Assembly (NCBI GenBank): GCA_905178155.1 | Contig: CAJINV010000005.1 | Location: forward strand, 8,959,222 to 9,023,221 | DNA from: Amoebophrya sp. A120 | Taxonomy: Eukaryota > Protista > Dinoflagellata | Length of the DNA stretch: 64,000 nt | Direction of reading: 5' to 3' | Shown here: one piece after another, positions 1 to 43,875 of the stretch | Position numbering within the stretch: the first letter of the stretch is position 1 | Layout of the letters: each line of letters starts with the position of its first letter | Made by a program: the position numbers and the translations under genes | Notes under the pieces: generated by a model | The model's database searches: none | Seen by the model: the letters and a program-made list of their open reading frames with translations, nothing else | Told to the model about the DNA's origin: nothing

Positions 1-435
1 TTCGCGCCTCGGCCTTCCTTGCCCCGGCGCAGCGTTCGCGTTTTCTGCTTGGGTGGCCCCCCGGATCGGTTTGCGCCCGCGCGCCGGGCGCCTGCGTTTC
101 GGCAACTCGTGGCGCCCTCCCCCGCGCGGCGCGCCCGCGCCTGCTACCAGCGGGGCCCCCGGGCCGCGTTTTCTTTTGGGCCCGAGGCCCGTGCCGCTTG
201 CCAAAGATTCACGACGCCCGGTAGCGCGCGCGTTGCCGTTCCGCGCCTGCCCTGGCACTGCCGTTCCCGCGCTTCTGAGTGTGTTCCGCGCCTGCCCAGA
301 TGTTGCGCCGACGAGCCTCGCGCCCCGCTTTTGTTTGCTGGCCCCGAGCGAGGTATGTGCTTCTGTTTGTCACAAGTGATTGCGATTCATCCCGTTGTAG
401 ACGCTCGCCGGTCAGTTTCAGAATAGCCAACCGAT

Positions 436-2665
436 ATGCCTCGAACCAACGCAGTCCGCACCGTGCGGAAGGAGCCGGCCGCGGCAGTTCCGCCCCTTTT
501 GCCCGCGGCCGTGCGGAAGGAGCCGGCCAAAGGTGTAATCCCTTTGCCCGCGAAAGGGCAGCCAGCGAAGGCCCGGCAGGTTTCGTACCTGCAAAACCTG
601 CAACACCAGCAGGCTTCGGAAGGCATCTCGACAGTAGTTTTCTGCTTCTGTTGTGATGAAGTCGACGTGTTCAACTTCGACGGTTTCAACCTGTCCAGCT
701 GTGACACCATGTACCAGCTGACGCATGGCGATAAAAAATACGCGTGCGGACCCCTGGCGCCGCGACAGGCTTGCGTGATCAGGTGCAAGCATCTCCACAC
801 GCAAAAACACATCTGCGGGCATTACTGCTGGCTCGGTGGTGTGCCAATTGGGCCACATGGCGGGGCGCGGCGAGTTGGCGCAACCCCGGAGGAGGCCGCG
901 GCCTGCAACGACGCAGTGTCTGCCGATATCCGCATGGCCCTGCGTATCCGACCCGGCGCGCCGCTGTTGTTACCGAAGGAACGCGAACACTACTGGGCTG
1001 GCAGCTGGCAGAAGGGCTTTTGGGTGGAGGTAACAAGTGCAAAAGTGTCCGGGTCTGGAGGGTTCTGAGATTTGTCCCGAAGTTTTTGCATGGGCTGCGA
1101 TGCCTGTCATGCATGCCGTAGCATGATGGGGCGACTGAGGACCTCGATGCCTATTCCGCATGACAAATGCCCTCTACGCAGCCGCAGCCGTTGCACTCTT
1201 CCAGACCCAGACACTTTCGCACTTGATAGGACGAAACTTCTAACAACATCTTCAGAGCACCGGTTCCGCAGTGGCTCCAGGCGACGGCGCGAGAAAAGGA
1301 GCAGAAAAAAGAGGACAAGCACTACGCGGAGCACGAGAAGTGGTGCATGAAAAACCTCCCGCGGCTGGACTTCCACAACACCAAAAAACACGGGTACACA
1401 ACGTGGCCGACTAACGCCATCAACGGCCTACCAAATGCAAAAGCGTCGAGGTCTGGAATTCTGCCAGGTGTGTCATGCATGTTGTGCATGACTCGAGTAC
1501 TCACGTTGCCAGGTTTTTCCTGCATGTTTTGCATGGCTCAGCTGCGGCCGCGTGGTCGCAGCAAACTTTTTTTCTCACGACCACGAGGAAGATCTTTCTC
1601 GAAGAAGAAGAAGTTCAAAAAAAAGATCGCTTTCTTCTTAGACGAAGGCGATCTTTTTTTTTTTGAAGAAGAAGATCAAAAGAGATCGTCGTCTTCTAAG
1701 AGGAAGACGATCCTTTTTTTTGAAGAAGACGCAGAAGATCTTTCTTTTGAAGAGGAAGAGTCGTCTTCTTCAAAAAAAAAGATCTTCCTCAAGAAGTGAT
1801 CTTCTTCAAAAGGATGAAGAAGAAGATCTTCTTCATTCTTCGTGAAGAAGATCGTCCTCTTCTTGAAGAAAAAAAGATCCCTGTCTTCTAAGACGAAGAC
1901 GATCTTTTTTTTTTTGAAGAAGACGAGGAAGATCTTTTTTTTGAACTTCTTCTTCAAAAAAAAGATCTCCTTCAAGAAGTGATCTTCTTCAAAAAGATGA
2001 AGAGTTCTTCATTCTTCGCGAAGAAGATCTTCTTCCTCTTCAAGAAAAAAAAGATCGCTTTCTTCCAAGAGGAAGACGATCTTTTTTTTGAAGAAGACGG
2101 AGAAGATCTTTCTCGTGAAAAAAAGATGAAGAAGAAGATCTTCTTCGTCGTGAAGAAGATTTCTTTCCTCTTCCTCAAAGAGATCTTCTTTTTGAAGGAG
2201 AAGATCTGCGTCTTCGTGAAGAAGATCTTCTTCTTCGTGAAGAGTGTCTTCTTTTTGGAGAAGATCTTCTTCCGCTCGTGAAAGTGCATGGCGCGCTTGC
2301 TCTCCTGCGCAGGAGAGCAAGCGCGCCATGCGCTTCGTGGTCTGCACGCAAAGCCGCAGCTTTGCGGCTTTTTGCTTCTTGTTGCTGATTTTCGTAGCGC
2401 CCACGGCTAGCGACATGATTTCCAATCTTCCAGACCGCGACGCTTTTGCATTTCATACAGCCGGGAAGTGTTCGACTTCCACAAACCGGACTGGCGCGAA
2501 AAACCGTCGAACTTGCGGCGCGATGAGTACTCAGCCGTGCCGAGGCACTGGCCACGGCCGGAGAACTCCCCGCACTGGCGGCCAGAATACGAACACTGGC
2601 ACGCTGAGGAGTTGGCCAGGGAGCAGAAGCGGGCAAAAAAGTTCCTGGAGGAGGAACACTGCTAA
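436..2665 (+). CDS. Hypothetical Cys/His/Trp-rich protein, 3 exons, ~330 aa
   Basis: Removing introners 1031-1228 and 1029-bp 1429-2457, each plus one 5-bp TSD copy, joins ORF 436.., the middle exon (DETSNNIFRAP...NAING) and ORF 2468..2665 in frame (993 nt). Confidence 0.65.
1031..1228. mobile_element. Introner, family A
   Basis: TIR TAACAAGTGCAAAAGTGTCCGGGTCTGGA / TCCAGACCCAGACACTTTCGCACTTGATA; TSD GGAGG/GGACG. A GT-AG reading 1030-1229 keeps the same frame. Confidence 0.85.
1429..2457. mobile_element. Introner, family A, expanded by an internal low-complexity tract
   Basis: TIR TACCAAATGCAAAAGCGTCGAGGTCTGGAA / TTCCAGACCGCGACGCTTTTGCATTTCATA; TSD CGGCC/CAGCC. Confidence 0.8.
1565..2283. 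repeat. Strand-symmetric GAAGA/TCTTC (AGATCT-rich) low-complexity tract
   Basis: Alternating GAAGAAGA, GATCTT, A-tracts and T-tracts; internal ~180-bp duplication (near 1790 and 1970). Confidence 0.9.
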
Positions 2666-4113
2666 GGAGTGTTTTGGGGAAGTTTTTTTTTGTAACAAGA
2701 TTGGCTTTGCTACAGGACTAGCAACAAGATTGCGCCAAAGTTGCGCTTTTTTGTAACGGGGTCGGCTTTTCTGAAAGACTTGCGACAAGACCTGCAACGA
2801 GATTGGATTTTTTTGTAAAAGACTGCCGCTGGATGTGTTTGTATGGAGTTGGTTGCGCGCCAAAGAAAGCAAGAAAACCTGCCCGGCCGGTGGCTTAGAC
2901 GGTGCCGCCGCGATCTGTTTCGCCGGCGGGCGACGGGCCTCGGTCCTGGTGTTCTTTTGTTTCGGCTGTGTTTCGTCAGAGAGTGTAAATCTCGGTCGGT
3001 CGGGTACACGTAGAATTTCGGTCGGGAGCTCTGGCATTAATTTCCGTCGTATGTAGATAGGCTCTATCGTTTTCAGCGGGTAGCTCTTCTCCTAAGAATT
3101 TCCACACCGCTGCAAGCCTATTCGGAGAGGGAAAACAAAGGAGAGCAGCGCGACAGTATTAACGGCAATCCCGCGTGGAGTGGCAGCGTAGATGTGGTCT
3201 GTAACTCGAGGGAAGGGTGGGAAGCGAGGGAGGGCAGTTGGAGGGTGATCGTTCACGCGCATAGATAGACCGTCCGTGGTAGTCGTCTTGCGGGTTTTGT
3301 CGGACCAGTTGCGATCTACATTAAGATGTATCCGCTTATCGCCCTCGCTCATTTGGCTCTTTGCGGGTTGTGTGGTATTTTCGTCGTTCTCGGCCTTTTG
3401 CGGTGCGGCCTGCGATTGTGCACGCGGCGGAGCGCCGGAAGCGCGCGGGCACTGCCAATGGGCCGGCCCGCTCCAGCGTCCCCTTTGCGGCAAAACCGAG
3501 CGCCGTTGCGCCTGCGGAGAGGGCCGCCACCGCCTCCAGCGCCGCCCCTTTTCGGTCGAGGAATTCTCGACGCCCCCGACGACCTTGGCTTCGAGTTTGA
3601 CGCCTTTCACGCTTTGGCGCGACCGCGAACGCCACCACGCTCGGCGACGCCGTCCCCCTCGTCGCGCGCGTCTTCCCCCCTTTCGCGCGGCTCCAGCACA
3701 GTCGACCCCAGCCCGGCTGTTTGACTTGGACGGGCGGGCCCGTCCTCATGTGTACTCGGACTGTTGTAGACAGACACCGGTCGACGCGCGGCGAGTGAAG
3801 TAGCCTCTGGAGTATTCATTGTTCAGGCATGTGAGAGGAGTTGCATTGGCCGAGCACCTAGCAGCCCCACGCGCGTAAGCAAGAGAGGAGGGCGAAGAGA
3901 GCGGCGCAGCTTTGGTCAGGCACCACTACGGGCGAACGTGCTAGCCTGGCCCTCGTATTTTCGTCGCGTGAAGGTTGGCGTTGGTGTTTTCTTCGCAGTT
4001 TCCCGCGTTCTTTATCGTAGTGTCGCGCTTCTTCTAGAAGTTTCCCGCCTTGTTTATCGTAGTAGAACAACCAGCGAGATTTGTACAAGTAAGAAAAGAC
4101 ACCGGAAGGACAG

Positions 4114-5643
4114 ATGTCACGGGCCCGGCGGGACATGCTTATCGCCCGCGAGGCGGCCCGGCGCCGCCGGAGGGAGGCGATGCTGCGGCGCATCGCCTAC
4201 AATTTTAGTGCGGGGGCTTGCGCAGAGGTCCTACTGGGATGCGTGTTGACCTGTCTCTCGTACCCGGCCGCGCTATTCTCGCCCAGTGCCTCGGCAGTGC
4301 TGCACGCGGCGGCCCTGATTCTTTTCGTCCTGGAAGGCCTGGCGCCGGTGGTGGTAAATCTTTCGCGGGCTCCAGCGCCCTCGCAGCTCCAGGGCTGCCC
4401 GAGCGGCTTCGTGATTCCGAACTGGGCGACGCAAAGCGGTTGTCTTTGGGAGGCGCTTCGCGACGCGCTTGACGCGACACCACGTTCACGAGTTGAGTCA
4501 GGGCAAGCACGGCGGGACCTACAGCGGAAGTGCTCGCCGTCCTCGTTGCGACACCGGGCCGGCGGAGTTCGCGGGGCTATGTCGACGACGCCGATGCTCT
4601 ACCGGGCAGCTGAGGTATGTTTGCGGGGGTTTCTTGCTTCGTGTGTTTTGGTGCTTAGGGTAGGAGTAGGCTCCTCGGTGGTTTCCTCCCCGGCCCTGCC
4701 CGGCGGCTTGTGTATTGTCTGGCGCATATTTATTCCCTCTGACGACACAAACAGGACCTCGGCCGTGTCATCTTGGTGCACGATGTGGCCCGCGGGGTGG
4801 TTTGGTCAGTCGAGCCAACGCCGGCGGCAGCAGGCCGGGCGGGTGTTGGTCGTGTTGTGCCGCCTCTCTTTCTTCGGTTGGACCGCCAGCACTACATGGC
4901 CTACGCTTCCGCGGGGGCTTTTGCAGTATCCGCGGGCAGGGCTCCTCGCTCTCCCGCGCTCGACGTCGAATTGTGTGGCGGCGCCGCTGCGGAGCTGTCC
5001 TGCGTGGCGGCTGCGGTCGCGGAGGTCAACCGGGTCGGCTTGCAGGGCGGAGACTGCGTCGCGTCGTCGCAGCCTGCTACGAAAGGGCTCCCGGATGGAG
5101 CCAACTTCCGGCCCCCTATTCCAGTTGCAGAGATACACAGCCCACTCAAGTGGCTTTGTGTTGCCATCGTACGGAACGGAAACTGTTTCTGGATCGGGTT
5201 GGTGTATCAACGGGAAGGATCCCCCCCGCCGTATATCAAGAAGGCATAGATAGCCGAGCCAATTTGTGATGGTGATTGGTGGCCACAAATCGCGTCCGTC
5301 TTGCAATAGTGCAAAGCCTGAGGGCGCGCCGCATTTCGCCGGTGGTTTGTGATGCATGTTGGTGGGTGGCATCTGGTTGCAGTTCGCAGGCGGATTTGCG
5401 TACGCAAGTCCCGCGCTACAGATTCCCCTTTTGATATAGGGCCGGGGACCTTTTCCTGGCGATATGCTCACGCACTTCCTGACCCGAGCGGGATCGGCGG
5501 CAGAACGCGAAAAGTGGCTCGCTGTCTTCTGGCCGGTCGACTACGCCGTCGCTTCGGAGGCAAAGGGCTACCGCGATTGGTTGCAGTTGGGCCCCCAGGC
5601 GGCCGATTGCGAGGCTCTCTATGGCTCCGCCGTCAAGGTATAG
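4114..5643 (+). CDS. Putative OTU-like cysteine protease, ~374 aa
   Basis: GT-AG intron 4615-4754 plus introner 5205-5464 give a 1125-nt ORF. Motifs SGCLWEAL ... YRAAEDLGRVILVHD ... LRLDRQHY resemble OTU Cys and His boxes; a second Cys box is RNGNCFWIGL. Confidence 0.5.
5205..5464. mobile_element. Introner, family C, diverged
   Basis: TATCAACGGGAAGGATCCCCCCCGCCGTATATC / GATATAGGGCCGGGGACCTTTTCCTGGCGATA; C-family internal AATTTGTGATGGTGATTGGTGGCCACAAATC; TSD TGGTG/TGCTC. Confidence 0.7.
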
Positions 5644-5664
5644 CTTGCTGCTGATCATGTGGCC

Positions 5665-5976
5665 AGATGATATATCTGAATGGCCGCGAAGTGATAGATG
5701 TCCGAAGCTTCTCAAGAGTGAGGATCTGGAATGCCCGCTGTTCCCGTTAAGGTGATAGATCTGAATGGCCGTCAAATGATGCGCGTGCGAAGCTTTTCAA
5801 CAGGATCCGAAATAGCCTCTGTTCCTGATGAGATGACTGATAGACCTGAGCGACATCAAGATGATAGAAGTCCGAAGTTTCTCAACAGGGTCCGCGATGC
5901 CATTTGTTCCCATTGAAATGATGCACCTGAATGGCCATAATGTGATACGTGTCCGAAGCTTCTCAACAGGGTCCGA
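5665..5976. repeat. Degenerate tandem repeat, ~4 copies of ~85-90 bp
   Basis: Recurring GATGATAGATCTGAATGGCC and GTCCGAAGCTTCTCAACAGGGTCC blocks. Confidence 0.7.
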
Positions 5977-6560
5977 AGAAGTCGCTGGCAGCTTTCCCTC
6001 TGTCTGCGGAGGGACTCAACTGATTGAGAATGCTTCCTGGGACCTCTAGCGCTTCAGCGTGGCGGGTGTGTTCAAAGTCAAACACCTAGAAACAGACCCG
6101 CGCGCGCGCTTCTGTCTTCCTGATGCGCCAACTATACCAGTCCACCCTTTGCGACGCTCGCATGCATCGCGTGGCGGTTTTCCTTTGTTTCTTCCTTCGG
6201 CCGCTTTTTTCTCAACACCGACCAAAAACATTCAAAAAAAGGTTGGGGCGGCCGTTTTGCAAGACCGCGTCGCAGCGAGAATGGGCGTCGCGTTGGAATA
6301 TGGCAAAGCAGGTATGGGGATGAAGACGCCCCCTCTCCAGTTTCAAACGCAACCAAGCCCGCGACGCGCGTAGCGTTTGGAGGTGGGGAGGGGGGTTCTT
6401 GCGTGTGATACCGCTCGGCGCCGCGGAGTGGGGAGCCACGGCGGCGCTTCTCGGGATACGGATCGGCGTCCTTGCGAAATTTCAGCCCGAGGAATTTCAC
6501 GGCCCTGCCTGCTTGTCGGAAACTGCGCCAACGGTCCATCTGTTGTATCACAGCGCGCAC

Positions 6561-9500
6561 ATGGATCTCGCTTTGGAGCGTATTGAGCTGGACTCGCAGG
6601 ACTCGCCGCAGCGGGACGGGCCGCCCGGGCCTTCTTCGCCTCCAAAGCAGCCGCCTCCTTCTTCACCTCCTGCGCCGCTGCTCCGGAGCCGAGACGCCCG
6701 GCGCCAATTGCCTGCAGACGGGGACACGACGCTAATCCTTCCCGACAGCGACGACGATGACCCAATGTTCCCCGGCCCGTCGCGCCGACGCTCCCGTGGA
6801 CGATTTGGGCCCGCCGGCGTTGCAGGCGGAGGCCCGGCCGCTGCCGCGGGCCTCGGGCAGCAATACGCGAGCGGACCGCTTATGTTTGGCGGGCTTGGGG
6901 CGAGCAGTGGATCGCGGCCGGGTGTGGTGCCGCGGCGCGCAGACCTTCCAGGCGAGGGGCACCGGAATAGTGGGCGGCCAGATCTGCCGCCATCGCAGCA
7001 CCAAACTGGCGCGGGCGTGTTCGGGTTGCCAGGCTCTTCCAGCACAACCGCGGCAGGCGGGACGCAGAATAATAACGGAGCGCCCGCAGCTCTCGGGCCG
7101 GCACAGCAGCACGTCGCAGTCGCCCACGCGCCGGGCTTTGCCTTTGTGGATGCCGGCGAGCGGCTATTATTTTCGCCGCCCCCGCGTGCCGCGGCGGACG
7201 CAGCCGCTCCTGCGGACGGGATGCAGTGGAATGACGTTGACGCCTTCGACCCTGAAGTTGATCCTGAGGGCCCACCCGGTGCGGCCGGAGGGGGCCCGGG
7301 CTTGTTGGACCCGTTCACTTTGCCGAAAGGGGCAACAAGGCTCGCCGATTTCTTGGACCCGAACCCTGCCCGGGTGCCGCTCGACCGGCAGCCCGGGTCC
7401 GAAGATTTGCAGCGCCGCCAAATCCTTGAGGAGATTGACCGACGCGCCGGACTGTTGCGCCGGGTTTGTGATCAGCTGGGATTTTTCAACACCATCGACC
7501 AAAGGTTCGCGCGGGCCGCCGCTGTCACGCAGCTCATGGACGAAAAGCTCCGCTGTATTCCATACACGAAATCCGAGCTAGCGAAGGTAGTCGCCTTCAG
7601 TGGCCTGGAGCTTACCTGGCGGGCGTTGGAGCATACCATTCTCTCCCGCCCCAGCAGCGGGCTCGATTGTTGGCAGCCCGAAGTCGAAGGGAACAGCAAG
7701 AAAAAAGTGTGTCAGCATTCCTGCTTCGAGGCTGTGGCAAAGAGCTGCCACACGGTCGCAGCTTACTGCCTTTACTTGCTCGGCGCGGGCGGCGGCGAGA
7801 GAAGTGTCGAGGAGGTGATCGCGCGGCTCATTCTGGAGGCCAATGGCGACTACCCGGCCGCGGTCATACTGGCGCACAAAAAAGTCGTGGAGAGATCCCA
7901 AGCAAAGCGGGAGCGCTACGGGGTGAGCCAGACGCGGGAGTTCACCGAAAAAGCGAGCAAAGGCTGGAATGACCTGGCTGAGGTTACAAAGTACTGGCAG
8001 GACGGGTTCGACAGGCTTGAGGTTGGAGATGTGACCCGGTACGCCGCAGTGCGGGAGAGCAGTGCCGAGGTCGCTTTTTTGGACGGCCGGCTGGTCCCCG
8101 GCGAGAGTGGGGGCTTCTGCTGGGTTCCGGCAAGTTCCGAGGGCATTGACAAGGACTACCGCAACTGCCATACTTACGGCGGTGTGGCGACCCGCCTAGC
8201 TCCAGGCGAGCCGCCGGACGCTGATGCTGCTGCGGCTTGGGCGAAGTTTCTGCGCGAGTGTTTCGGCCCGTCGGACGGAGGGGTCTTGGCAGTGTTCTTC
8301 TTATTGGTCGGGTTGTTGCTCCAAGGGCAGGGTCCCGGCAGATGGGTGATGTGCATGAACGACCACGGATTTGCGAAGAGCACTTGGAATGATTTCATCT
8401 GCTATGCCGTTTCCAATGGCAAGCAGGAAGACACCTTCCTTCAGCGGGAATGCCTTGAAGGCCCGGAGCAATTCGAGGCAGGGGCCTGGCATGTGGTTGA
8501 TTCCAAAGTAACAAGAACGCCCGAAGTCCGTGGCAAGCTAGACAACGGGCTGATGAAGAATCTCCCCGACAAGCATTACGCAGCCTCTACGCGGCGGAAG
8601 TATTGCAACTCCCTCATGGTCTTTTTTGGTTTGTTTCTCCACCTCCTCGAGTTCAATCCGAAGAACGGCGAGGCTTTGCAATTGAAAGACCTCCAGGACG
8701 ACATTGATGCAGTCCTGTCGCGGATCCTGGTCCTCCAGAAGATCCTGGGGCGGTTCGTCGATGCAGACCTGTGGGCTCGGCTTGGTGGTGACCCTACCCT
8801 TTTCCCGGACAATCTGCCGGATGGGTTCACCGCCAAGAAGGAGGGCACCACCTTCACCCTGCGCACCCCGGAGATCGTTCGCTGCTTCTACTTGTCGGTG
8901 GTTTCGCAACCCCTTCGTGGACCGCCTGCGCGCCGATGGCGAGACCTTGGCCGGCATCTTCGTCGACTTGCGGAAGCTTGACAGCAAGGTGCTGGCGTAC
9001 ACAGGGCACAGGACGACGACGGCGAGAGACAGTGAAGACTTCGTCTATGACGTCCTTTTTAAGAAGTCGATCCCCCGCCCCGACGCAGTCCCCGGCCGCC
9101 AAGCAGCCGCGGCACCACCGCCCACGCGGAAGATTAACTGGGGCGACAACCGTATTGGGGCGGCCTTGCGTGGCAACAAGAAGGCGAAAAGGGAGGAGCT
9201 CGAAAATTTCGCGCGGAACAACCCGAAGGAGTGGCACCTGCGCAGGAATTGGCATTCCGTTCGCGGGAAGTATGAAGAAGTTGGCGGGACGTTGTGGCCG
9301 TTGTTTTTCGAGCCCGACCGTATTCCGGAGCTGGCTTTTGGTCGCATGGGGCAGATGGTCGGCCACCCCTTCCAAGTGAACACGCAGTCGCTGAGTTTCC
9401 ACGCGCAGCTTCTCCGAAAACGAGCGCACCAAAGTGGCGACGCCAAAAAAGTAGCGCAGGCAGCTGTCTGCGAGGATTTTCTGGACCGCGCAAAAAATGA

Positions 9501-12500
9501 GGAGGACGGCTGGGTCGTGACGCCATTGAAGTTCCCGAAGTCCCTGGAGGGACTCGGCGCGAAGGAGTGCGGCTCCCGGAGGTATGAGGTCGCCGCCGGG
9601 CCGCAGCGACTCCCGAGGGGAGCGCGGGCGGCTGCGGTGGCAATGTACAAAGGCCCCGAGGGCGCTTTTCCACTTTACGAGGAGTGGGACATTGAGAATT
9701 GCGACCCGACGGTGACGGTTTTGCTGATCGACCGCTTATTTCCCGCGCCCGCCTCCCCGCCGCCCCTCGTGTGTTTTCGCGAGCTCGTGCGGGACCGGGT
9801 TGCGGTTCGCCGAAATTTAGAAGCAGCGGGGGAGCCGGATGCGAAGACGGCTCTTTTGCGGCTCCTATGCGGCGGGGAGCCGCGTGCTGGCGCGTCGACC
9901 TGGGAAAAGGATTTTGCAGCTGAGTGCCGACTGGTTCGCGAGATTCTTTGCCAGGCCCGGCCGGCTCTGTTCGCGCACCTGCAAGAGGCGCGCAAGGTGG
10001 AAGAAAGCAGGCGGGACGACGTTGGCGCGCCCGCTTTCCTGCCGAGGCAGCCGAACCGCTACCCAGACCCCGCGGCATCTTGCCAGCACCACGCGACGCA
10101 GGACATCGTTAACCGGATAATGTCCGCGCATGTCCGCGCGGTTGTGGACGTTTGCGGAAGGCAGGCAGTCGGGGCGGAGATATTTGACGCCTTTCTCGCC
10201 CGTATCGACTTGCCGGGCGGAGGTGTCGCGGACGCCATTTCCAACATTTCCCGGGAAACGGGGTACCCGGTTCGTCTGGTGCAGAAGGCGGTCCGGGGTC
10301 CGCGTTGGTGGTACCTCATTCCGCAAAGTGAGGCGCCCCGCTTGGACCCGCCGGGCGGGCGGCAGCCCTTCGAGGCCTGCGGACCGGCAATGCTGCGGGG
10401 CCTTGGCGAGGCGGTTCCGCAGCATTGTGGAAGTTTGTCCGCGGAGGACATTGCTGGAATCACGGGGAAGGCGCTCGCTCTTTGTCCGGCTGGCGAGGCC
10501 GCCGACCTCCTCGCCTTAGAGGGCAAGCCGGAGGCGCCATGGGTAAGAGCTTACGTGCTGCAGCGCGTTGACCCGGAGTCTATTGGTGTCCCGGCGCCGC
10601 CACCGATCGCGGAAGGGACGGACGAGTTCGGCGGCGAGGCGCGCTGGCATTGGTGGGCGCTCGAGAGCGGCGCCGGGTATTTCTCCCCGGGCGCGGTGAG
10701 GCTCGTTGATGTTGACGGAGTTCGTGTGCTTCCGCCAGCGAGCGTCGCGGAGGTGCTTGCGTTTTTGGATGCTTGCCCGGTGTGTTTCATCTATGTGGAG
10801 ACCGCTCCGGGAGAAGCCGGCGACGCGGTTGCCGCTCGGCTGCTCGGTATGGCGGACAACCTGGCGCACTTTCAGCTGAAAGGGGACGCGCGAAAGGACC
10901 CGGATGATTTTCCCCAGACGGCCGCGAAGCGGACGAAGACGTACAAATTTAAGCCCTTGCAGTGGAAACATGTAAAGACGCGCCGGTGGTTCCGGGTTGC
11001 AACGTGTTCCCGGGACCGAGAGTGCCACCGTTGCCGGATGTGTGGGGTTTCCCCGGTTCCACACAATTCCACCACCCACAAGCACCTCCTGTGCAGCTGG
11101 CGCTTTCATGGGGATACCCCGCCGGACATGGTCGAGGAGATTCCGAAGTACGAAGCAGAATTCGGAAAACCAGACGAATCATACTACATGTCCCTGCAGC
11201 AACTTGCGCCGAGCTTGCGCCAGAAGGTGCACAGATACACCCTATCGGGCGGAAACATGGTGGACGAAAAAACGCTCCAGGACCGAAAGCCCGGCACCAA
11301 GAACGACCCGTCCGCGCGAATTGACCAGATTCTCGGCATGGATGGCGCAGCCCTCCGCGAGAACTTCTTCCCCGGGGTATTCGAGTGCGCCACCTGCGGG
11401 GCGGGCTGCGAATTGGGCGAAACCCGCTGGGGTATGCCGGAGTGGGTCTGCAAGTGTGGCGCTGCCACCCCGTGCGATTTTTTTCGTGAAGCAGGCCTGG
11501 TGACTCGGTCAACCACCCCAATCGCCACCGCGGTCCAAGTTGTGCGCGGTTTCGTTTTGGGGCGAACGTCCTCGCAGACCGCCCTCGATTTGGCCATCCA
11601 CTCTAGTACGGTCGGGCTGATGTACGACAGCATCGTCGCCGCAGCCGCCTCGCTGTACCACATGCAGAGCGAACTGGTAACCTACCCCAAAGTCTCCTGT
11701 GTCGAGGCAGATGAGGCGTGCTTCGGCAGGACGACGGTCGACCACATCGAGGCCCAGTGGGCCCCGAAATAAAAAATCTATGGCGTTGCTGAAAAATTTT
11801 TTTTTCGAAAGAAAAAAAAACTCCGGCCCCGGCCACTACATGACGAAACGAAAACAAACAGGAGCCCCAAGGGGCGCACCACATGCCGGACTAATTGCAA
11901 GGCAACGCCGGACACTGGGAGGCAAAGAGAAACAACACAGCCGGGGCACCGCCCTCGACACCTGGCCGAACAACACCCGCCAAGCAAGAGACATCAGGCG
12001 CAGTCCAGTCCTATGGCCCGAGGCACTCCCGAGGAAAGCAAAGAAAGGGAGGCAGCGAGACCCAACATCATGAGGGCACACAAAAAAGACTTCCGCCTGT
12101 CCCATGCACAACACCACGACCGCCGGCTGACTTGGGATCAACTAATGGGCGAAAAAAAGTCAGCGAATGGGCAGAAAAAAGTCAGTTTTTGAGCAGTTTA
12201 TGGGAACAAAAAGTTCAAAAAAAGTCGCCGCTTTTGCATGTATAGGGAAAATCCCTCAGGTTTTTTGCCCACGCCCATTTTTCTGACTTTTTTCTGACTT
12301 TTTAATGATTTTTTTCTGACTTTTTTCTGACTTTTTTTCGCCTTTTTGCTGATTTTTTTGCCGCGCATGTCGCGCCACGAGTTGCCATGGGCCCGCGTTG
12401 GGCTCGGCAACCTGCGCTGCAAAACGACCAACCGGAGAGGCTTTCACCGACCAACCGGGAGGCCCTCTCTTGGTGAAGACAATCGCCAAGACACCTCCTC

Positions 12501-13779
12501 CCGGTCTGCAACATTTCGCCCCATGTGGTGGGCGCCATCGACACACACCACACGGCGCAACACGCAAGGCCTCTGCCCCGAAAACGAAGAGCCGGACGCC
12601 AACCGGCACAGAAAGGCGCCGGAACATGAATGGGGCCAAAGCTTCGCCACAAACCCCCCGGCGGCAAAATTTTAAAAAAATGAAAGCCAAGCAGTTCGGT
12701 TTTTCAATGAACGCCATAGATTTTTTATTTTTTCGGCTACTGGGACTCGATCTGGTCGACGACGGCCCTCCGCGCGCGGCAGAAGGTGCACCAGACGAGG
12801 ATCTTCCAGTGTGTTCTGCAGAGGGGCTGCCCAAAATCGTTAAAGCTTTTCGATTTGGGTGTCGCGGAAAGTCGCGAATCGTCTAGGTTTCCCATTTTGA
12901 AACAGAACGTGTGGAGGTTCGTCTATCGCAAGTTCATACTCCCTGCCTGGGAGGGGGTTCTGCCGGAAAATAGTGGCGAGTGCCTGATGTGGTTGTCCGT
13001 TGACTCCGCCAGCTGCTACAAATTAAAGCGGTCGGAGTACGTACTTCTGTCCGTCGTGCATTCCCAGCGGGAGTTCTGGGCGAAGCTTAAGCACCCGGAG
13101 CTTGCCGACGCGCCGGAGCTCGGCAACAACTGCGCGGAGAACGTCTGGCGGCACTTGCGTAAGTTGCTGAAGGAACGTATGGAAGTGTCAGAGTCGAAAT
13201 CGGCAAAATCGAAATAATTTGCGATGCATAAAGCCGGCACCACTTGGGGCCTCGGTGTGTTTCGAAGTGGCGCATGACAAATTTCGGGAGCACGAAGAGC
13301 AAGCCGGTCATGCTGTTTGGGCGAAGAAGACTGCTCCTGCCGTGCTGCTCCGGCAGGGCATCGCCTTCCTCTAAACAGGCTTGGAATCGGTCTCATTTGC
13401 CTGCTCCCCAGCACAGGCCTCACTTGCCCTACCTTTTCTGCATTGCAAGTTTCTCGATTTTGTCGATTTCGATCCTGGCGCCCCCATAGAACGGTGTGCG
13501 ACAATGCGGAAGGACCACCTGATGCAGAAGCCGAATTGGGTCTACGCTATGGCGTATCTGTTTGTTTCTTCCCTCCCCATCGACGGCCGAGTGTCCGAGA
13601 TCATGCAGATGCTCTTATCGCCGCGAACCCTCTACAGCGTTGGCCCGAGCGTGCCCCCGGAGGGACTGTCACAGGAAGAGCAGGACGCCCTCTCCGAGGA
13701 AGAGTGGTCCGACGAAGAAGACGAGCAGCCGGAGTCCGATCTCAAGGAGCTCTTCGACCTGTCGCCGTCCGAGGGATAG
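6561..13779 (+). CDS. Multidomain protein: D5-like SF3 helicase + TVpol (A-family-like primase-polymerase) + Zn ribbon/HTH + IS1595/ISXO2/Merlin-type DDE transposase, ~1957 aa reconstructed
   Basis: Joins ORFs 6399..8981, 8704..11772, 12786..13217 and 13381..13779 via a +1 shift near 8890, removal of 1028 nt (11738-12765) and removal of 316 nt (introner 13178-13488 + TSD); total 5874 nt. Helicase: WAKFLRECF, HGFAKST, TPEV, LMKNL...RRKY, EFN, SRILV. Polymerase: GSRRY...QRLPR, WDIENCDP, AKTALLRLLCGG, IFDA. Transposase: CATC...WVCKC, HTH, VEADE, SVDSASCY, VVHS, NNCAENVW. Confidence 0.8.
11738..12765. mobile_element. 1028-bp foldback/MITE-like insertion splitting the transposase domain
   Basis: ~60-bp imperfect terminal inverted repeats (GTCGACCACATCGAG...AAATAAAAAATCTATGGCGTT); 8-nt direct repeat GACGACGG at 11730-11737 and 12758-12765; internal inverted GAAAAAAAGTCAG / CTGACTTTTTTCT tracts. 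Confidence 0.85.
13178..13488. mobile_element. Introner, family E, in the transposase C-terminus
   Basis: TIR TATGGAAGTGTCAGAGTCGAAATCGGCAAAATCG; perfect TSD GAACG. Confidence 0.9.
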
Positions 13780-14048
13780 CGTTGCTTTCGGAAACTATAT
13801 CAGTTAAGACTCGAAATATCAGCAACACCAATAAACTCAGCAATTTACGCAAGCGCCGCCAGTACGTTCTCCGTGCAGTTGTTGCCGGGTTCGGGCGTGT
13901 CGGCAGGCTCCGGGCGCTTAAGCTTCGCCCCGGTCGTGTATATCAGAAATCAGGAATATGCGTAGCATTGTGCAACAGAAGAAAATCGAGCAGGCATATA
14001 ATACGAGAAGCGTACTAGATTCCTAGAAATAACAGAAACGACAGTCGA

Positions 14049-14206
14049 AGCGTTGAAATTTCGGAAAAGATAAAGCCTACGCTGGCCGTTCGCAGATAGA
14101 TTTTTCATTTTTTCACAAGCTGGCTCGCAGCGTTGAAATTCCGGAAAAGATAAAGCCTACGCTGGCCGTTCGCAGATAGATTTTGTATTTTTTCACAGGC
14201 TGACTC
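14049..14206. repeat. Direct repeat, 2 x 80 bp
   Basis: AGCGTTGAAATT(T/C)CGGAAAAGATAAAGCCTACGCTGGCCGTTCGCAGATAG... at 14049 and 14129. Confidence 0.9.
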
Positions 14207-14350
14207 TGTACAAAAGTGGAGCTGGAGACATTCGAAAAAAATGCCCAAGGCTGCTGAAAAACATAAAAGCGAAGGAAGACCGGAGGCCGGCAGACTCCTG
14301 CGCATGTGTGTCCCCCTTCTCCTTTCTTCTCTCGCCGTGTATTATCTCGC

Positions 14351-14997
14351 GAGGGACAGAGGACCGAGGACCGGAGACCAGCAGGCTCCCTGTTATGTGC
14401 CCGACCTTTCAAGCTACCGCCTCACCTCGCCAACTACTACCTTGTGAGCGACTGAGGACCGAGGACCGGAGACCAAGAAACCCCCTTTCATGTGTCTCAG
14501 CTTTCTAATTTCTTACCCCTTCAAGTATTACCTTTGGAGCGACTGAGGACCGAGGACCGGAGACCAAGAAACTCCCCTTCGTGTGTCTCAGCCTTCTACT
14601 TTCTTATCCCTTCAAGTATTACCCTTTGAGCGACTGAGGACCGAGGACCGGAGACCAAGAGACTCCCTTTCGTGTGTCTCAGCCTTCTACTTTCTTATCC
14701 CTTCAAGTATTACCCTTGGAGCGACTGAGGACCGAGGACCGGAGACCAAGAAACTCCCTTTCATGTGTCTCAGCTTTCTAATTTCTTACCCCTTCAAGTG
14801 GGACCCTTTGGGCGACTGAGGACCGAGGACCGGAGACCAAGAAACTCCCTTTCATGTGTCTCAGCTTTCTAATTTCTTATCCCTTCAAGTATTACCTTTT
14901 GAGCGACTGAGGACCGAGGACCGGAGACCAAGAAACTCCCTCTCATGTGTCTCAGCCTTCTACTTTCTTATCCCTTCACGAGACCAAGAAGCCCCCT
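14351..14997. repeat. Tandem repeat, ~7 copies of a 91-bp unit
   Basis: GAGCGACTGAGGACCGAGGACCGGAGACCAAG... at 14446, 14537, 14628, 14719, 14810 and 14901, with a degenerate copy at 14351. Confidence 0.95.
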
Positions 14998-15524
14998 CTT
15001 AGGAGTTGTAAGGAAGGTTCTTCCTTTTGCGGAAGTTGAGCGGTTGAGTGTTGTTTGTTGTTGTTGCAGTTCTTGCTCAAGTAGAGAAAAAACGCCAATC
15101 ACGATGGAGCTGCTGTTATTCCGTACCATGCCAAGAACTACAACTACCCGGCCAGGTCTAGCACAAGAACTCGTGACAATTTTTTTTTTCAAAACTTCAA
15201 TCCTTTTTCATACTGCAGCCAAGAAGGGAAGCACTCGTGCCAGAGGGCTGTTAAACCAAATTTTGTCTTTTAGAGCTGAAGTTTTTTTTGTTCACAGTTC
15301 ATCATTCATTTATCATCATCTTTGGGACGAGAAACGTATTTTATTTTGTTCCTTGTGACGTCTGCCTACATCATTCGTCGTGTGTCGAAATTCGAATCTT
15401 CTCCCTGCGATTACCGCACGAAAAGGATAGATGGATTGACATTCAGCTACTTAAATTTCGGTCCATGAGGAGTCAGTACGAAGTTATTGAACCTATATGG
15501 TACTAACCTCGCCAACCTTCATTC

Positions 15525-23226: not shown

Positions 23227-26200
23227 TCACTGAGGCATTAGATCAGGTGGCCGCTCGCCAAGGCCGGCTGCAGTAGGCCACAAACCGGCGGTGGACTGGG
23301 CATCACCAGTGGGCCGGCCAGACTCCCCACCGACTGCCACGCAAACGTTAGCAAACAGCTCCCCGAGCTTGGTGATCCGGATTTCCTCCTCCGGTTCCCC
23401 GAGCTTCATCGCCTCCTTTTGCTGCCCACTGTAGGGCAAAGGCCCCACGCTGCTGTAGCTCGGGCGCGACGCCAGAGCCTCGGAAGGCTTGGGGCAGGTA
23501 GGAAGCGCCGTTACATCAGTTTTACCGGGGGCGCGGAGCCGCCAATCCCAGAAGAGCAGCGGCGAAAAAACGGTCATCATGATTTCCTTCACTTGTTCGC
23601 CGCCCATTTTTTCCCCCTTGCGATGCCTGCCCAACTTGGAAACCCGACTCGCGAAAACGTCTCCAGAGACCATCGCGCCGCGTTCGTTGGCGAATTTGTT
23701 GTCGTTCTCCGAAATACCTCCGGATTTTCGAGGGAAAACATTTCGGTGAGGTAATGACATTTCAGCATTTCGCTTGCGGATGATTTCCGGGACGTCGAAG
23801 AGAACGGGCTCACGTTTGCGTTTCTTTCCTACCCTCTCCCGAGCATCGCCAAGGGTCTTCCAAATAAGCGGAGCTCCAATCATCTCCAGGCGTTGAGGAC
23901 AGCGGGGCTCCGGCGCCTCGGAGCCTAGAAAAAGTTTTTCTTCTAGAAAAAGTTTTTCTTCATAGCAGGCCTGAAACCACAAAGACCCAGAGTCGGTAGA
24001 AAAAACTTCAAAGATGGTAAAACTGAAGCTGAACAAGTCCATGAGCGGGTGGCGAGGCAGTTCGGAGGGGCGCAGGATTAGCTTTCCAGTGTCCATATAG
24101 GCCAGACTTCCTGTTGTCAACACTTTTTCGCGCAGCATCGGCGTGGTCATGAGCGGGTCATGTGGCAGTTCGGAGGCGAACAGGAACAGCTTTCCAGTGT
24201 CCATGTAGGCGGGACTTCCTGTTGCCGCCACGTTTTCGCGCAGCATCGGCGTGGTCGGCGTGGAAAACGGGCCAAAAAAGAACATCTCGCTGAACCCAAA
24301 GTCAGAAACCAAGGGCTGCGAAGCATACCCAGGGGCTGCGAACCGTCCCGGCAAGAGCAGCCCCAGGCTCCCCGGCCTCAAATTGCCATGCTCGATTCCC
24401 AAGGACTCGAAGCGCAAGAGGCACTGTCGCAGGTGTTTCACGAAAGCAGCTGGATCGAAGTCTGCGTTTTTGTGAATGAGCTCCTCGATGGAAGGGCGGT
24501 CTGAAAACGGCTGCAGGTATGCGGTAGAAAAGTCACCCCACCCCACCTTCGTCGAACAAATCTGCATGCTCAGATTGTGTCTCGCGTGCAGTCCTCCCAT
24601 GAGAAAACATTTAACTCTAAATGATGGACATCAAAGCCAATTTTTGGTAATGAAATTATTGCCCTCAGGGACGGTGGCCACGCCTGTGTTGTCACCTGTG
24701 TAGCACAGCCAAAGTCCCCATTCCCATTTTTACAAATCTTTGATGGGGAGGTGGGTGCGCTTTTACATAGGATATCACACTTTCCATCATCATGCTCACC
24801 ACCCCTTCCTCGTTCGCGAAGAAAAACTCCAGGTGCGGCACGCAGCGACTGATTGCCGCGCTAGCACCAGCTGCATCGGCCACTGGTGCAGCAGCGCTCC
24901 CTTCCCAAATGAAAACATCGCGCATGCCTTCTGTTTCAAAAAGCGTCAGCAAAGTGTGCACGAAGATTGCGGAGGCTGCATTTTCGACCTCTTGCTCGTT
25001 GCGCACAGGCTGGCTCTTCAGGGCGTAATGCCCGCCATCTTTCGAGTAGAAAGACACAGACACCCCAGCAGATCCCCCCGGGCTGGGGGAATCGGAGGAG
25101 CGGGCGTAGTCCTCGTTGAACTGCTGCAGCGTGGTCACCGGCTGCGCAGCGAGCTTCTCTCCCAGTTTTTCCAGGAAAGCGACCTTGCTCGCAACATCCT
25201 CTCCTTCTTCACCACGACCCGTCGCGCCGGCCTCGGCGCCGGCCGAGGTCCACCACGGAAACAGCTTCTCCCGTTCGACTTCGTTTTTAAGCATCTCGCT
25301 CAACTTCTTGAACTGCGCAGCAAGCTTGTCGCTCAGAAGCGTTCCCACAGAAGTCTCCACTGCCGCGCAAACTTCAGAAAACAGCTCCACAAGCTGTTTT
25401 TTCCGAAAGTTTTTGTGGTGGTCCGAGAGCTTCATCACCTCCACTTGCGGCTGCGTGTTGTAGGGCAAAGGCTGCACGCTGCTGTAGCTCGCAAGTGACT
25501 CCAGAGGCGCGAAAGCGTTGGGGCAGGCAGGAAGTTCCTTTTTGTCCGTTTCACCAGGGGCGCGGAGCCGCCAATCCCAGAAGAGCAGCGGAGAAAAAAC
25601 GGTCATCATGATTTCCTTCACTTGTTTTCTGTCCATTTTTGCCCCCGTGCCGTGCTTGCCCAATTTGGAAACCCGACTCGCGAAAACGTCTCCTGTGACC
25701 ATGGCACCCAGCTTGTTGGCGAATTCGTTGTCGTTCTGAGAAATCATATCGCTCCGGGACCAGAAATTTTGGCGTTGGATGATTTCCGGAACGAAGAAGA
25801 GTTGGGGCAAAAAAGGACCTTGCGTTCCCTTTTTAGCACGGACAATGGTGTCCCAAAGCTTCTGCTGACCTGCACAGTCGTGCCGCCGGTCCGGATTGCC
25901 GCCAACAGCTGCTCCACCATAGCAGCTCACAAAGAGTGCAGACTGAGAGTTGATAGAAAAAACTTCAAAGATGGTGAAGCTGAAGCTGAACAAGTCCATA
26001 AGCGGGTGGTGCGGCAGGGAGGATGGATGCAGGAACTGCTTTCCAGGGTCCACGTACCGCGAAGTTCCTGCACTCAGCACTTCCTTGCGCAAAAACGGCT
26101 TGATCGTCAGCGACGGCGTGTCAAAAAAGAAGATCTCGCTGCACCCAAAGTCAAAAACTAAGGGCTGCGAAGCGCCCACAAGGACTGGGCCTTGTCCCGG

Positions 26201-29200
26201 ATACCAGGTCTGCAATTTGAACGGCAGCCCCAGGCCCCCCGGCTTCAAATTGCCATGCTCGATTCCCAAGGACTCGAAGCGCAAGAGGCACTGTCGCAGG
26301 TGTTTCACGAAAGCAGCTGGATCGAAGTATGCGTTTTTGTGAATGAGCTCCTCGATGGAAGGGCGGTCTGAAAACGGCTGCAGGTATGCGGTAGAAAAGT
26401 CACCCCACTCCACCTTCGTCGAACAAATCTGCATGCCCAGATTGTGTCTCGCGGGCAGTCCTCCCATGAGAAAGCATTTAATTCTATATGATGGACATCA
26501 AAGCCAATTTTTGGTAAATGAAATTATTGCCCTCAGGGACGGTGGCCACGCTTGTGTTGTCAGCTGTGCAGCACAGCCAAAGTCTCCATTCCCATTTTTA
26601 CAAATCTTTAATGCGGAGGTGGGAACGCTTTTACATAGGATATCACGTCTTCCATCATCATGAACGCATACCCCCTTTCCAAGAGGAAGAACTTCAGGTG
26701 CGGGACGCAACGATTGATTGCCGCGCTTTGTCCCTGTCCCGCAACGGCGACAGCACCAGCTGTCCCGGCCACTGGTGCACGAGCGCTCCCTTCCCAAGTA
26801 AAAACGTCGCGCATGCCTTCTGTTTCAAAAAGCGTCAGCAGAGTGTGCACGAAAATTTCGGAGGCAACATTTTCGATCTCTTGCTCGTTGCGCACAAGCT
26901 GCTTCTTCTGGGCGTACTGTTCGCCATTTTTCGAGTAGAAAAACAACGTAGCGTGGGCGTCCAGGAAGACGTATTGTTCGCCAAACTGCTCAAGCGTCAT
27001 GAGCGGTGGCGCAGCGAGCTTCTCTCCCAGTTTTTTCAGGAACGCGAGCTTGCTCGCAACATCCTCCTCGCGTTTGCGATTCTCATCCTCTTCTTCCCCA
27101 CGACCCGTCGCGCCGGCCTCGGCGCCGGCCGAGGTCCACCACGGAAACAGCTTCTTCCGTTCGACTTCGTTTTCAAACATCTTGCTCAACTTCTTGAACT
27201 GCGCAGCAAGCTTGTCGTTCAGAAGCGTTTCCACAGAAGTTTCCACTGCCGCGCAAACTTCAGAGAACAGCTCCAGGAGATTTTCTTCCCGAAAGCTTTG
27301 CTCGTCTTTCGAGAGCGTCATCACCTCCTTTTGCTCCTCGCTGTAGGGCAAAGGCTGCACGCTGCTGTAGCTCGGCTTTGACTTGAGAGCCTCGGAAGCG
27401 TTGGGGCAGGCAGGAAGTTCCTTTTTGTCCGTTTCACCAGGGGCACGAAAACGCCAATCCGAAAAGAGCAGCGGAGAAAAAACGGTCATCATGATTTCCT
27501 TCACTTGGTTTCCGTCCATTTTTCTCCGCCCGTACTTGCCCAATTTGGAAACCCGACTCGCGAAAACGTCTCCTGTGACCATGGCACCGCGCTCGTTGGC
27601 GAATTTGTTCTTGTTGTCCCGCGACTCAGAATAATCTCCCAGAAACCCCGACCACAAATCTTGATTGCGGATGATTTCCGGGACGCGGAAGAGTTGAGGC
27701 GTCAGACGATCGTGCGTTCTCTTTCCGGCACGCTGAATGGTCTTCAAAAGCTGACGTGGACAGCCCGCCGGAGTGTTAGAAACAACTGCTCCATAGCAGT
27801 TCACAAAGCCCGCAGACCGAAGGGTGGTGGAAAAAACTGCAAAGGTGGCGAAGCTAAAGCTGAACAAGTCCATAAGCGGGTGGTGCGGCAGTTTGTTGGT
27901 GGACAGGATCATCTTTCTGAGGTCCATGTAGTGAGCAGCTCCTGCTCCCGACACTTCCTTGCGCAAGAACGGCTTGATCGTCAGCGACGGCGTGTCAAAA
28001 AAGAAGATCTCGCTGCACCCAAAGTCAAAAACCAAGGGCTGCGATGAAGCACCCAGAAAGACTGGGCTGCGATGTCCCGGATACAATTTGAATGGCAGCC
28101 CCATGTTCGCCGGCGTCAAATCGCCATGCTGGATTCCCAAGGACTCGAAGCGCAAGAGGCACTGTCGCAGGTGTTTCACGAACACAGCTGGGTCGAAATC
28201 ATCGTTGTTGGAAATGAGATTCGACATCAAGCCCTGGTCCTGTAAAAAAAACGGCTGCACGTATGCGGAGGCAAAGTCACCCCACCCCACCTTTGTCGGG
28301 CAAATCTGCATGCCCAGGATGTGTCTCGCGGACGGTCCCATGAGAAGCATTTATATAAATTCTAATGATGGACATCGAAGCCAGTCGCAGTCCCCATTCC
28401 CATTTTTACAAATCTATAAAGGGGGAGGTGGGTGCGCTTTTATATACGATATCACGATCTCCATCATCATGTACGCAAACCCCCCCTCCACGAAGAAAAA
28501 CTTCAGATGCGGCACGCAATGATAGACTGCCGCGCTTTGTCCTTGTCCCGCAACGGCAACAGCACCCGCTGCATCGGCCACTGGTGCAGCAGGGGTCCCT
28601 TCCCATGTGAAAACATCGCGCATTTTTGCTGTTTCAAAAAGCGTCAGCAAAGTGTGCACGAAAATTTCGGAGGCTGCATTTTCGATCTGCTTCTCGTTGC
28701 GGACAGGCTGGCGCTTCAGGGCGTACTGTTCGCCATTTTTCGAGTAGAAAAACACCTCCCCAATATCCCCTCTTATGGAAGTACCAGAATAGGTGTATTG
28801 TTCGTTGAACTGCTCAAGCGTCATGACCGGTGGCGCAGCGAGCTTCTCTCCCAGTTTTTTCAGGAACGCGAGCTTGCTCGCAACATCCTCCCCGCGTTTG
28901 CCATTCTCATCCTCTTCTTCACCACGACCCGTCGCGCCGGCCTCGGCGCCGGCCGAGGTCCACCACGGAAACAGCTTCTTCCGTTCGACTTCGTTTTCAA
29001 ACATCTTGCTCAACTTCTTGAACTGCGCAGCAAGCGTGTCGCTCAGAAGCGTTCTTGAACGCTTTCCCACGGAGCTTGTCTCCGCGACAGAGCGGTCGAC
29101 TGCCGCACAAACTTCAGCAAACAGCTCCAGGAGCTTTTTTTCCCGAAAGCTTTTTTCGTCTTCCGAGAGCTCCATCGCCTCCTTTTGCTCCTCGCTGTAG

Positions 29201-34251: not shown

Positions 34252-35439
34252 ACTACAACTATCTATAATACTATTGGAAAAATTCTGGCGGGCGGGGGGG
34301 TGCAAGCTACTAGTAGGAATCCTACTAGTGGAAAGCTGCTAGTAGAAAAACAGCTACTAGTAGAAATCCTGCTAGTGTTTTTAGCGTGACAAAAAAGCGC
34401 GAGAGGTACTAGTGACAGGCGCCACTAGTGAAGGCACTCACTAGTGGAGCCACTAGTGACAAAAAAACCGATTTTGGGGAAAGCGGAAACACTAGTGAGA
34501 AACACTAGTGAGAAAAACTGCCAAATTGGGAAACTCGCTGGGAGGGGCCGAGGCGCCCGCTGCCCCGCCCCCAGGTGGCCTTCGGACCTGCCTGCCGTGG
34601 TCCGGGCCCTTGGCCTTGGCTTAGATGCCTGGCGGTTCGCGTTTGGCTGCCCACGGCTGAAGTCGCTCTGCTTTGTGGCGCCCCGTCCCCTTCCACTTCT
34701 GTTGCGAGCGATTTGGCGCAAGTTTGCGCCTTCTCTGCCGCCTGTTGCTCTGCAGGCCGGGCTTGGTCCTGTGCGCACTGCCGACCAAGGGGGCTCTTCG
34801 GGCGCGCCGGGGGAGCCTGATTTTGCTTTGTTTCCTTGCTTTGGGTTTCCGAGCGTGTTTTCGGTTTCTTTGCGGCCCGCCTCCTTCTCCTTTCGCTTCC
34901 AACGCTTCCGCGTTGCCTCGTCCTCGGCAATAGGTGGGCCTTCGCTTTGGCCTGCTTGCTCTTTTTTTTTGATCTGTCTGGCTTCTAGCAAGAGCCAAAT
35001 CCAGCGCCCCCCCTGCCTTTCCATCGCAGCCCTCCTTGCCTGTTGTGCTTTATTTTTGCTTGGTGCTCGCCGGGTTTCTTGTCTTTCGGCCGTCGGCGCG
35101 CTCTTTTCGTTCTGCTTCGTGTGGCTAGCCCCCCGAGCCTTCGCAAAGGGTCTGCGCTCGCTCTTCGCCGGACGTGTTTCTGGAGGCTTGGACAGCGGCT
35201 GCGCTCTGTGCCCCCTACTGCCCCTCGCGCCTAGCGGCCTTGACTCTACCTACGCTTCTTTCGCTCCCACCAAGGGAGGAGGGGCGGGAGAGCTGCCGTT
35301 TCTCTTTTTCGCTTCTCGCGCCAACAAAGTTTCAGCATCTAGGGATGGTCACTGGCCGCGGCCACGCTCTTTTCCCCTCGCCCCCCTTGCGCCCCCTCGT
35401 CGCCGGGCCGGCGGGCGCGGAGCGACCGCCCGTTCTAGA
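34252..35439. mobile_element. 1188-bp GC-rich non-coding insertion flanked by a 32-bp direct repeat
   Basis: TAATAACCGACATTGTGATGTCTCTTTACCAG at 34220-34251 and 35440-35471; ACTAGT cluster at ~34309-34510. Confidence 0.75.
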
Positions 35440-35582
35440 TAATAACCGACATTGTGATGTCTCTTTACCAGCGGTACAACGTGTGGTAGACTTTCTTAAT
35501 ACGAAGAAAATCAAAGCCGGATGGCAAGCGTTTACTCACCGACCTGTTTATTTCAGCTTCCAGCCACAGAAACTTAAACCCA

Positions 35583-43874: not shown

Positions 43875-43875
43875 N

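Follow-up and report, generated by a model that had tools for sequence, protein, structure and literature searches.

What is the GC-rich block that opens a 64,000-nt stretch of the dinoflagellate Amoebophrya sp. A120 genome (contig CAJINV010000005.1, positions 8,959,222-9,023,221 of the forward strand; the whole stretch is called the window here)? The initial annotation took positions 1-14997 for the body of one giant element with cargo genes and subterminal repeats. On balance we judge that this block is probably the right-hand part, 15 kb long, of a self-synthesizing DNA transposon present at low copy number. Its main gene is predicted to encode a single polypeptide that unites a superfamily 3 (SF3) helicase, a primase-polymerase of the TVpol/PolA-like kind and a Zn-ribbon/helix-turn-helix (HTH)/DDE transposase resembling IS1595. 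A large mobile-type element is supported by the IS1595-like DDE domain and by the presence of at least two versions of the block in one sample, but the main gene is predicted to be replication and transposition machinery rather than cargo, a role that the initial annotation had missed. It is this fusion gene, not the repeat arrays, that gives the block its main interest.

A broken fusion gene with an intact relative

Collinearity with an intact relative shows that 6561-13779 reads as a single gene. In the window it lies in four pieces, the open reading frames (ORFs) A (6561-8981), B (8686-11772) and C (12720-13217) and a last piece (13494-13779). The features of the gene are as follows.

6561..13779, + strand: giant fusion gene of ~1,957 codons in four pieces, with a frameshift near 8891 and insertions at 11738-12765 and 13178-13493
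7950..8891, + strand: predicted D5-like SF3 helicase (Walker A-like motif, 8364-8384; arginine-finger-like motif, 8715-8732)
8885..8900, + strand: +1 frame switch that separates ORF A from ORF B, crossed in a single frame by the relatives P0001 and P0003; the DNA contigs list no indel here
9490..10350, + strand: predicted TVpol/PolA-like polymerase (hairpin Arg, 9571-9585; motif A Asp, 9685-9708; motif C Asp, 10180-10194)
11380..11737, + strand: Zn ribbon, HTH and first catalytic Asp (11704-11715), IS1595-like by hhalign profile
11738..12765: insertion of 1,028 bp resembling a miniature inverted-repeat transposable element (MITE) or introner, with 60-nt inverted arms and an empty-site joint in DNA contigs
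12766..13177, + strand: remaining DDE core (second Asp, 12999-13010; Glu, 13131-13148), assigned at motif level and by the similarity of ORF C to P0001
13178..13493: host-type introner of 316 bp (5-bp direct repeat, TAT...ATA ends) with high contig depth in its bin
13494..13779, + strand: last exon, with C-terminal helices and an acidic tail, placed by similarity to P0001 and by frame

Searched in full with HMMER against 1.84 billion representatives, ORF B had three matches in total. The intact relative, P0001, is a 1,661-aa EukProt protein encoded by g6326 of Amoebophrya sp. AT5.2 and is collinear with all four pieces at ~30% identity. Identical residues number 88/301 (29%; E 1e-21) for ORF A, 124/399 (E 4e-38) and 74/267 (E 2e-16) for ORF B, 49/160 (31%; E 1e-20) for ORF C, and 13/44 (E 0.039) for the last piece, which matches P0001 residues 1575-1618. 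P0001 comes from gene prediction, and introns placed by that prediction may underlie its continuity. In a second relative, P0003 (672 aa, possibly truncated), which comes from a 9.6-kb contig, helicase and polymerase are independently joined and the A/B junction is crossed in one frame.

Precise excision of either insertion preserves the frame, leading to the ~1,957 codons, and both insertions could be removable by splicing, like host introners. An intron at the 8891 frame switch was considered and rejected, because coding-like codons of both frames meet there within ~10 nt (read by eye). Given the frameshift, the window copy is probably inactive, unless it is recoded.

Predicted domains of the fusion protein

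The predicted order of domains is SF3 helicase, TVpol/PolA-like polymerase, Zn ribbon, HTH and IS1595-like DDE.

Transposase. An hhalign comparison against a profile built from 11 annotated IS1595 transposases gave a match over the HTH and the first Asp (probability 76%, E 2.3e-5); all 25 controls stayed at or below 0.64%. A four-Cys ribbon lies N-terminal to the HTH in both the window gene and P0001; positions 40-69 of the IS1595 profile align at this ribbon with a non-significant score. The order Zn ribbon, HTH, DDE is that of the IS1595 Zn-ribbon groups. The Atlas search, which uses a language model, placed P0001 residues 1310-1620 among ISXO2/IS1595 clusters (0.92, 185/256 features), with 23 of 30 matches in the PF12762 set. 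The DDE domain did not reach the Pfam cut-off.

Polymerase. TV-Pol proteins are marked by a hairpin Arg, two palm Asp residues and RxxxK in the fingers, according to the part of PMC2579912 that defines them. In our polymerase alignment (A1), GSRR and the motif A Asp are present in 4/4 sequences and the motif C Asp in the 3/3 that reach that far; the fingers Lys is present in 4/4, and the Arg four residues upstream in 2/4, being absent from the window copy. In Atlas, ORF B residues 190-490 (0.93) adjoin unnamed viral clusters, and the nearest named family is PF00476 DNA_pol_A (0.81, 21% of members); the two Atlas searches, for polymerase and DDE, count as one kind of evidence. AlphaFold models had to be built from alignments of 3-4 sequences and were poor, with a predicted local distance difference test (pLDDT) score of 49 for the polymerase and 41 for the other model. 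Foldseek with the poor polymerase model found nothing at E 0.001; its top rows (E 0.02-0.045) include virophage helicase-polymerases, and the named rows among its top eight are the Zamilon replication protein (probability 0.96) and the Qinghai Lake virophage helicase/primase/polymerase (0.77). The window gene has the helicase ahead of the polymerase, as do P0001 and P0003.

Helicase. This is the weakest of the three domain assignments. Against 13 phage D5/P4 helicases, hhalign gave a probability of 25% (E 7.7e-4) over 154 columns spanning the Walker A and arginine-finger motifs, with all 30 controls, 29 shuffles among them, at or below 0.6%. The marks of a D5-like SF3 helicase are Walker A, Walker B, motif C and an arginine finger. 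An hmmsearch for the helicase was not significant, and hhalign of the untrimmed alignment (A2) against P4 alpha alone was negative.

Homologs of the gene were also sought by word-seeded searches and by scans of viral and metagenome contig collections, which gave no matches, and by tblastn against phages and plasmids, which gave chance rows only. Nothing could be learned from searches of PDB structures with the poor AlphaFold models or from a viral search with the model of the DDE domain. Three RNA runs placed 3, 344 and 0 reads on the window; the host part was almost bare in the first two, so these are uninformative on expression.

Coexisting versions of the block

Two DNA runs from one sample, X1 and X2, were examined as contigs. 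They covered all 30 bins, broken into short pieces that each show between 0 and 29 differences. Both runs contain a joint 11738-12767 that skips the 1,028 nt of the larger insertion, and depth at this site, filled versus empty, was 21 versus 20 in X1 and 47.7 versus 45.9 in X2, contig depth being no copy number. Filled and empty forms thus coexist, since both runs hold the empty joint at the depth of the filled form. In other versions, 12 nt are inserted at 7258 and 8 nt at 10517, and no version is listed with an indel at 8891. A second version without the 1,028-bp insertion, together with differences along the block, means that the block is present as copies or alleles, with at least two versions in the sample; one contig with 29/342 nt different hints at a third.

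Among changed codons of the fusion gene, 16/36 were synonymous where 10.5 +/- 2.7 would be expected (P=0.03; based on 40 of the 197 listed differences), and this excess is a weak sign of past selection.

The target duplication of the 1,028-bp insertion can be read as 4, 6 or 8 bp. We considered the 8-bp reading as proof of Merlin activity and rejected it, because 4 or 6 bp result when the terminal inverted repeats (TIRs) are read symmetrically, and because the insertion lacks GG...CC ends.

Composition, repeats and borders

The compositional contrast drawn by the initial annotation was confirmed: GC content is 58.1% in 1-14997 and 48.7% elsewhere in the 64-kb window (15 versus 49 one-kb windows, Mann-Whitney p=6e-6, the windows not being independent). 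Introner density is indeed low, yet not zero. The motif GCATGACA occurs 104 times outside the block and 4 times inside, and CCAGACCC 31 and 3 times, so that the density per kb of both introner-type motifs is 3 to 8x lower in the block than in the rest of the window. The genes of the block contain at least four insertions. Cumulative GC skew has a turning point at 11-14 kb.

Three co-oriented genes had been proposed and are plausible on the + strand at ~436-2663, 4114-5249 and 6561-13779, with the correction that the third is a single broken 7.2-kb gene making up half of the block. Downstream, seven long ORFs with high G+C at third codon positions all lie on the - strand, in agreement, for the ORFs covered, with the claim that all host genes there do so.

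The right end of the block holds these repeats.

13837..13930, - strand: 93 nt from the DDE-coding exon (13078-13170), copied in inverted orientation; the flank of this copy is seen, with variants, in contigs of both runs
14045..14206: 2 x 80-bp tandem repeat (period 80, 2.0 copies, 92%), as originally described
14359..14999: 91-bp array of six full units, one degenerate unit and a terminal partial unit; candidate subterminal array or origin

The 91-bp array was borne out, with its count of about seven refined. The periodic stretch 14431-14978 holds 6.0 copies (92%) while the core motif has seven exact matches at 14359-14929 (0 expected), hence six full units and one degenerate. The array ends near 15 kb in a partial unit. 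Contig depth across it, relative to the block baseline, is ~10x in X1 and 5x in X2, which suggests further units elsewhere or a collapsed array.

No reverse-complement partner of the arrays or of 14960-14998 was found in the 64-kb window.

A 19-nt motif is common to the right arm of the 1,028-bp insertion (12716-12734) and both 80-bp repeats (14096-14114 and 14176-14194). It has three matches against 0.02 expected, for a T-rich pattern picked post hoc, and a local score of 17 against 15 in host DNA. We treat it as a weak lead that the insertion may have binding sites in common with the element.

Choosing among explanations

In the mechanism that we propose for a self-synthesizing transposon, the element ends would be bound by the Zn ribbon and HTH, with cutting and joining left to the DDE domain. 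Once excised or strand-transferred, the element would be copied by the helicase-polymerase, perhaps with priming at or close to the 80/91-bp arrays, which are candidates for binding sites or origins; integration of the new copy would again fall to the DDE domain.

Several results weigh against this explanation. The 64-kb window offers neither a TIR nor a target-site duplication (TSD) partner for the block's right border near 15 kb. The search for a terminus, a TIR, a TSD or an empty site of the whole element came up empty, the left end lying beyond the window. Searches of window ORFs and relatives against Pfam, PHROG and NCBIfam gave only rows below cut-off, and PDB sequence searches gave no match. 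The helicase match is weak (25%) and the last Gly of Walker A is Ala in 2/3 sequences; RxxxK is complete in only 2/4. The C-terminal half of the DDE domain alone does not match the IS1595 profile significantly (0.8%), and while the window gene has all of the D, D and E motifs, P0001 has Gly aligned to the third catalytic Glu. The window copy is frameshifted and some other version carries the 8-nt insertion at 10517. Lastly, allelism, a mixture of clones or a segmental duplication could explain the two versions. Dinoflagellates are generally haploid.

It is unlikely that the block is part of an endogenous polinton-like virus (PLV) or virophage, with capsid and packaging genes to the left of the window and the fusion serving as replicase-integrase. 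This reading would account for the closest look-alikes of the polymerase being viral, PLVs span 14-40 kb in the account given by PMC12220804, and the left end is outside the window. Yet no capsid or packaging ATPase was recognised in the 15-kb block (genes 1 and 2 scanned with Pfam only; left part beyond the window), nor did library scans of it recognise a pPolB polymerase, RVE integrase or jelly-roll capsid (genes 1 and 2 not folded). The block genes have a GT-AG intron candidate, and three scans of viral contigs came back empty. The polisuviruses, as presented in the relevant part of 10.64898/2026.10.13.758929, typically have PolA N-terminal to the helicase and paired with tyrosine recombinases, with DDE accompanying pPolB.

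We consider it equally improbable that the locus is non-mobile, that is, a domesticated fusion gene, with allelism, another clone or segmental duplication behind its second version. GC content and introner density set the block off from its flank, it ends in arrays, its versions carry frame-breaking lesions and differ by up to 29 per 342 nt, and just three relatives turned up among 1.84 billion representatives; all of this argues for an element. On the other side stand the small number of versions suggested (2-3), the lack of element ends among our findings, and the altered third catalytic residue of the AT5.2 relative. The co-orientation of the block genes needs no element, because Amoebophrya genes cluster unidirectionally (PMC7789003).

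The block might instead be a plasmid-like replicon able to integrate, or an ordinary cut-and-paste element of IS1595 type that is fused to a replicase it captured, the replicase having no role in transposition. This would suit the degenerate helicase motifs and the helicase-polymerase without DDE in P0003 (672 aa, possibly truncated), but is very unlikely given a triple fusion retained over ~70% protein divergence and catalytic Asp residues of the polymerase kept in both full-length forms.

Comparison with known systems

A self-synthesizing transposon of this kind would work as TV-Pol replicative transposons and other self-synthesizing elements do, but fits no described family and is possibly a new class; it is not a canonical Merlin and probably not a polinton. 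The functional class of self-synthesizing transposons is marked by dispersed copies with TSDs and by DNA synthesis through the element's own polymerase. The Merlin label of the initial annotation comes near only. Taken together, the IS1595 Zn-ribbon groups and eukaryotic Merlins offer the Zn ribbon, HTH, DDE order and the E-x-D-E first block seen in the window gene, and the dinoflagellate Merlins covered in PMC8101967 likewise have internal tandem repeats. In contrast, the Merlin/IS1016 proteins described there are without the Zn ribbon that this gene has, and the Symbiodinium Merlin transposases are 181-445 aa, whereas here the domain is the C-terminal fifth of a 1,700-2,000-aa chain. Merlins have a single small transposase ORF, in place of the 1,661-aa and ~1,957-codon fusions, and the present element is at least 15 kb. 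Merlin hallmarks are TIRs with terminal GG and a TSD of 8-9 bp.

A minimal PolA-like polymerase with a D5-like helicase, the pairing predicted here, is found in TV-Pol transposons and the TVpol-SF3 replicases of Sputnik-type virophages and PLVs, as far as the relevant parts of PMC2579912 and PMC3671162 describe them. The former source links TV-Pol to a recombinase or RNase H-fold transposase, and proposes bacterial TV-Pol genes beside resolvases or RNase H-fold transposases as replicative transposons. In those virophage replicases the polymerase is N-terminal and the helicase C-terminal (PMC3671162; 10.64898/2026.10.13.758929, in the parts on domain order); here the helicase comes first. Compared with the TV-Pol transposons as outlined in that literature, the transposase here is fused, not adjacent, and is IS1595-like rather than IS630/IS605 or a resolvase, and the window element resides in a eukaryotic nuclear genome rather than in bacteria.

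Polintons/Mavericks, transpovirons and casposons also combine their own DNA polymerase with an integrase on a 15-kb scale. Polintons/Mavericks and transpovirons differ, in the descriptions drawn on here, by family B polymerases and RVE integrases encoded as separate genes, and no capsid was seen in our block. Casposons have a family B polymerase and a Cas1 integrase, again as separate genes. To our knowledge, the self-synthesizing elements known from eukaryotes use family B polymerases and have mostly proved to be viruses. Helitron RepHel, in the portion of PMC6431247 that treats it, is likewise a very large (>1,500 aa) multidomain protein for replication-coupled transposition; it differs in having an HUH nickase and helicase, with no polymerase or DDE. 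That source also suggests that a nucleic-acid-primed polymerase and primase paired with an integrase could yield new large transposable elements.

No description of a helicase-polymerase-transposase fusion was found in the literature covered; supplements, Repbase and subscription journals fall outside that coverage and may hold one. It is a tentative proposal, for us just short of an even chance, that the gene represents an undescribed class of eukaryotic self-synthesizing DNA transposons, with a reversed-order SF3 helicase-PolA replicase and an interchangeable DDE domain in one polypeptide, the IS1595-like Amoebophrya version also being a missing autonomous transposase for part of the introner/MITE population. 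Unclassified introners in Amoebophrya are reported in PMC12130899, whose introner passages make no mention of Merlin. In PMC7789003, Farhat et al. counted no more than two putative transposases for one Amoebophrya strain and found none for a second, and they excluded transposases as general drivers of introner spread. A transposase may have been missed earlier because its divergence lets it escape Pfam. If the proposal is true, a capsid-less element whose single chain unites PolA, helicase and a bacterial IS1595-type transposase would constitute a new transposon class and connect virophage replicases, plasmids and insertion sequences. The intact AT5.2 protein opens the way to direct biochemical tests.

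Other features of the window

Two genes precede the fusion gene, both without a Pfam match.

436..2663, + strand: gene 1, Cys/His-rich, with insertions at ~1038-1221 and 1434-2450
4114..5249, + strand: gene 2, with an in-frame GT-AG intron candidate at 4615-4754

Removal of the second insertion of gene 1 restores the frame, and the guessed boundaries of the first do not. The insertion in gene 1 is filled by a self-complementary low-complexity stretch of GAAGA/TCTTC words (1560-2330). Four degenerate tandem repeats of 81-85 bp lie at 5668-5975, past gene 2 and ahead of the fusion gene. The 93 nt copied from 13078-13170 belong to the exon of the third catalytic residue, and the inverted copy lies directly behind the stop codon; a read-through RNA across 13078-13170 and 13837-13930 could form a hairpin.

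In the host part of the window, introner types between 15577 and 58836 have 5-bp direct repeats with TAT...ATA ends, and others are bounded by TGCA or TCGA. This introner anatomy, set beside PMC7789003, and the AT5.2 relative point to a parasitic dinoflagellate like Amoebophrya as the likely host. Four related tandem ORFs of 467-601 aa occupy 23230-30108 on the - strand; two of these were scanned and gave no Pfam match above cut-off. At 34304-35440, ACTAGT-rich short tandem repeats precede a kilobase of high GC content that shows no codon bias; this may be a further element or a promoter region. The segments ~37500-44000 and 44800-51000 form a near-exact tandem duplication at an offset of 7,284 bp, with the same ORFs and introners and one N at 43875, and this is possibly an assembly artefact.

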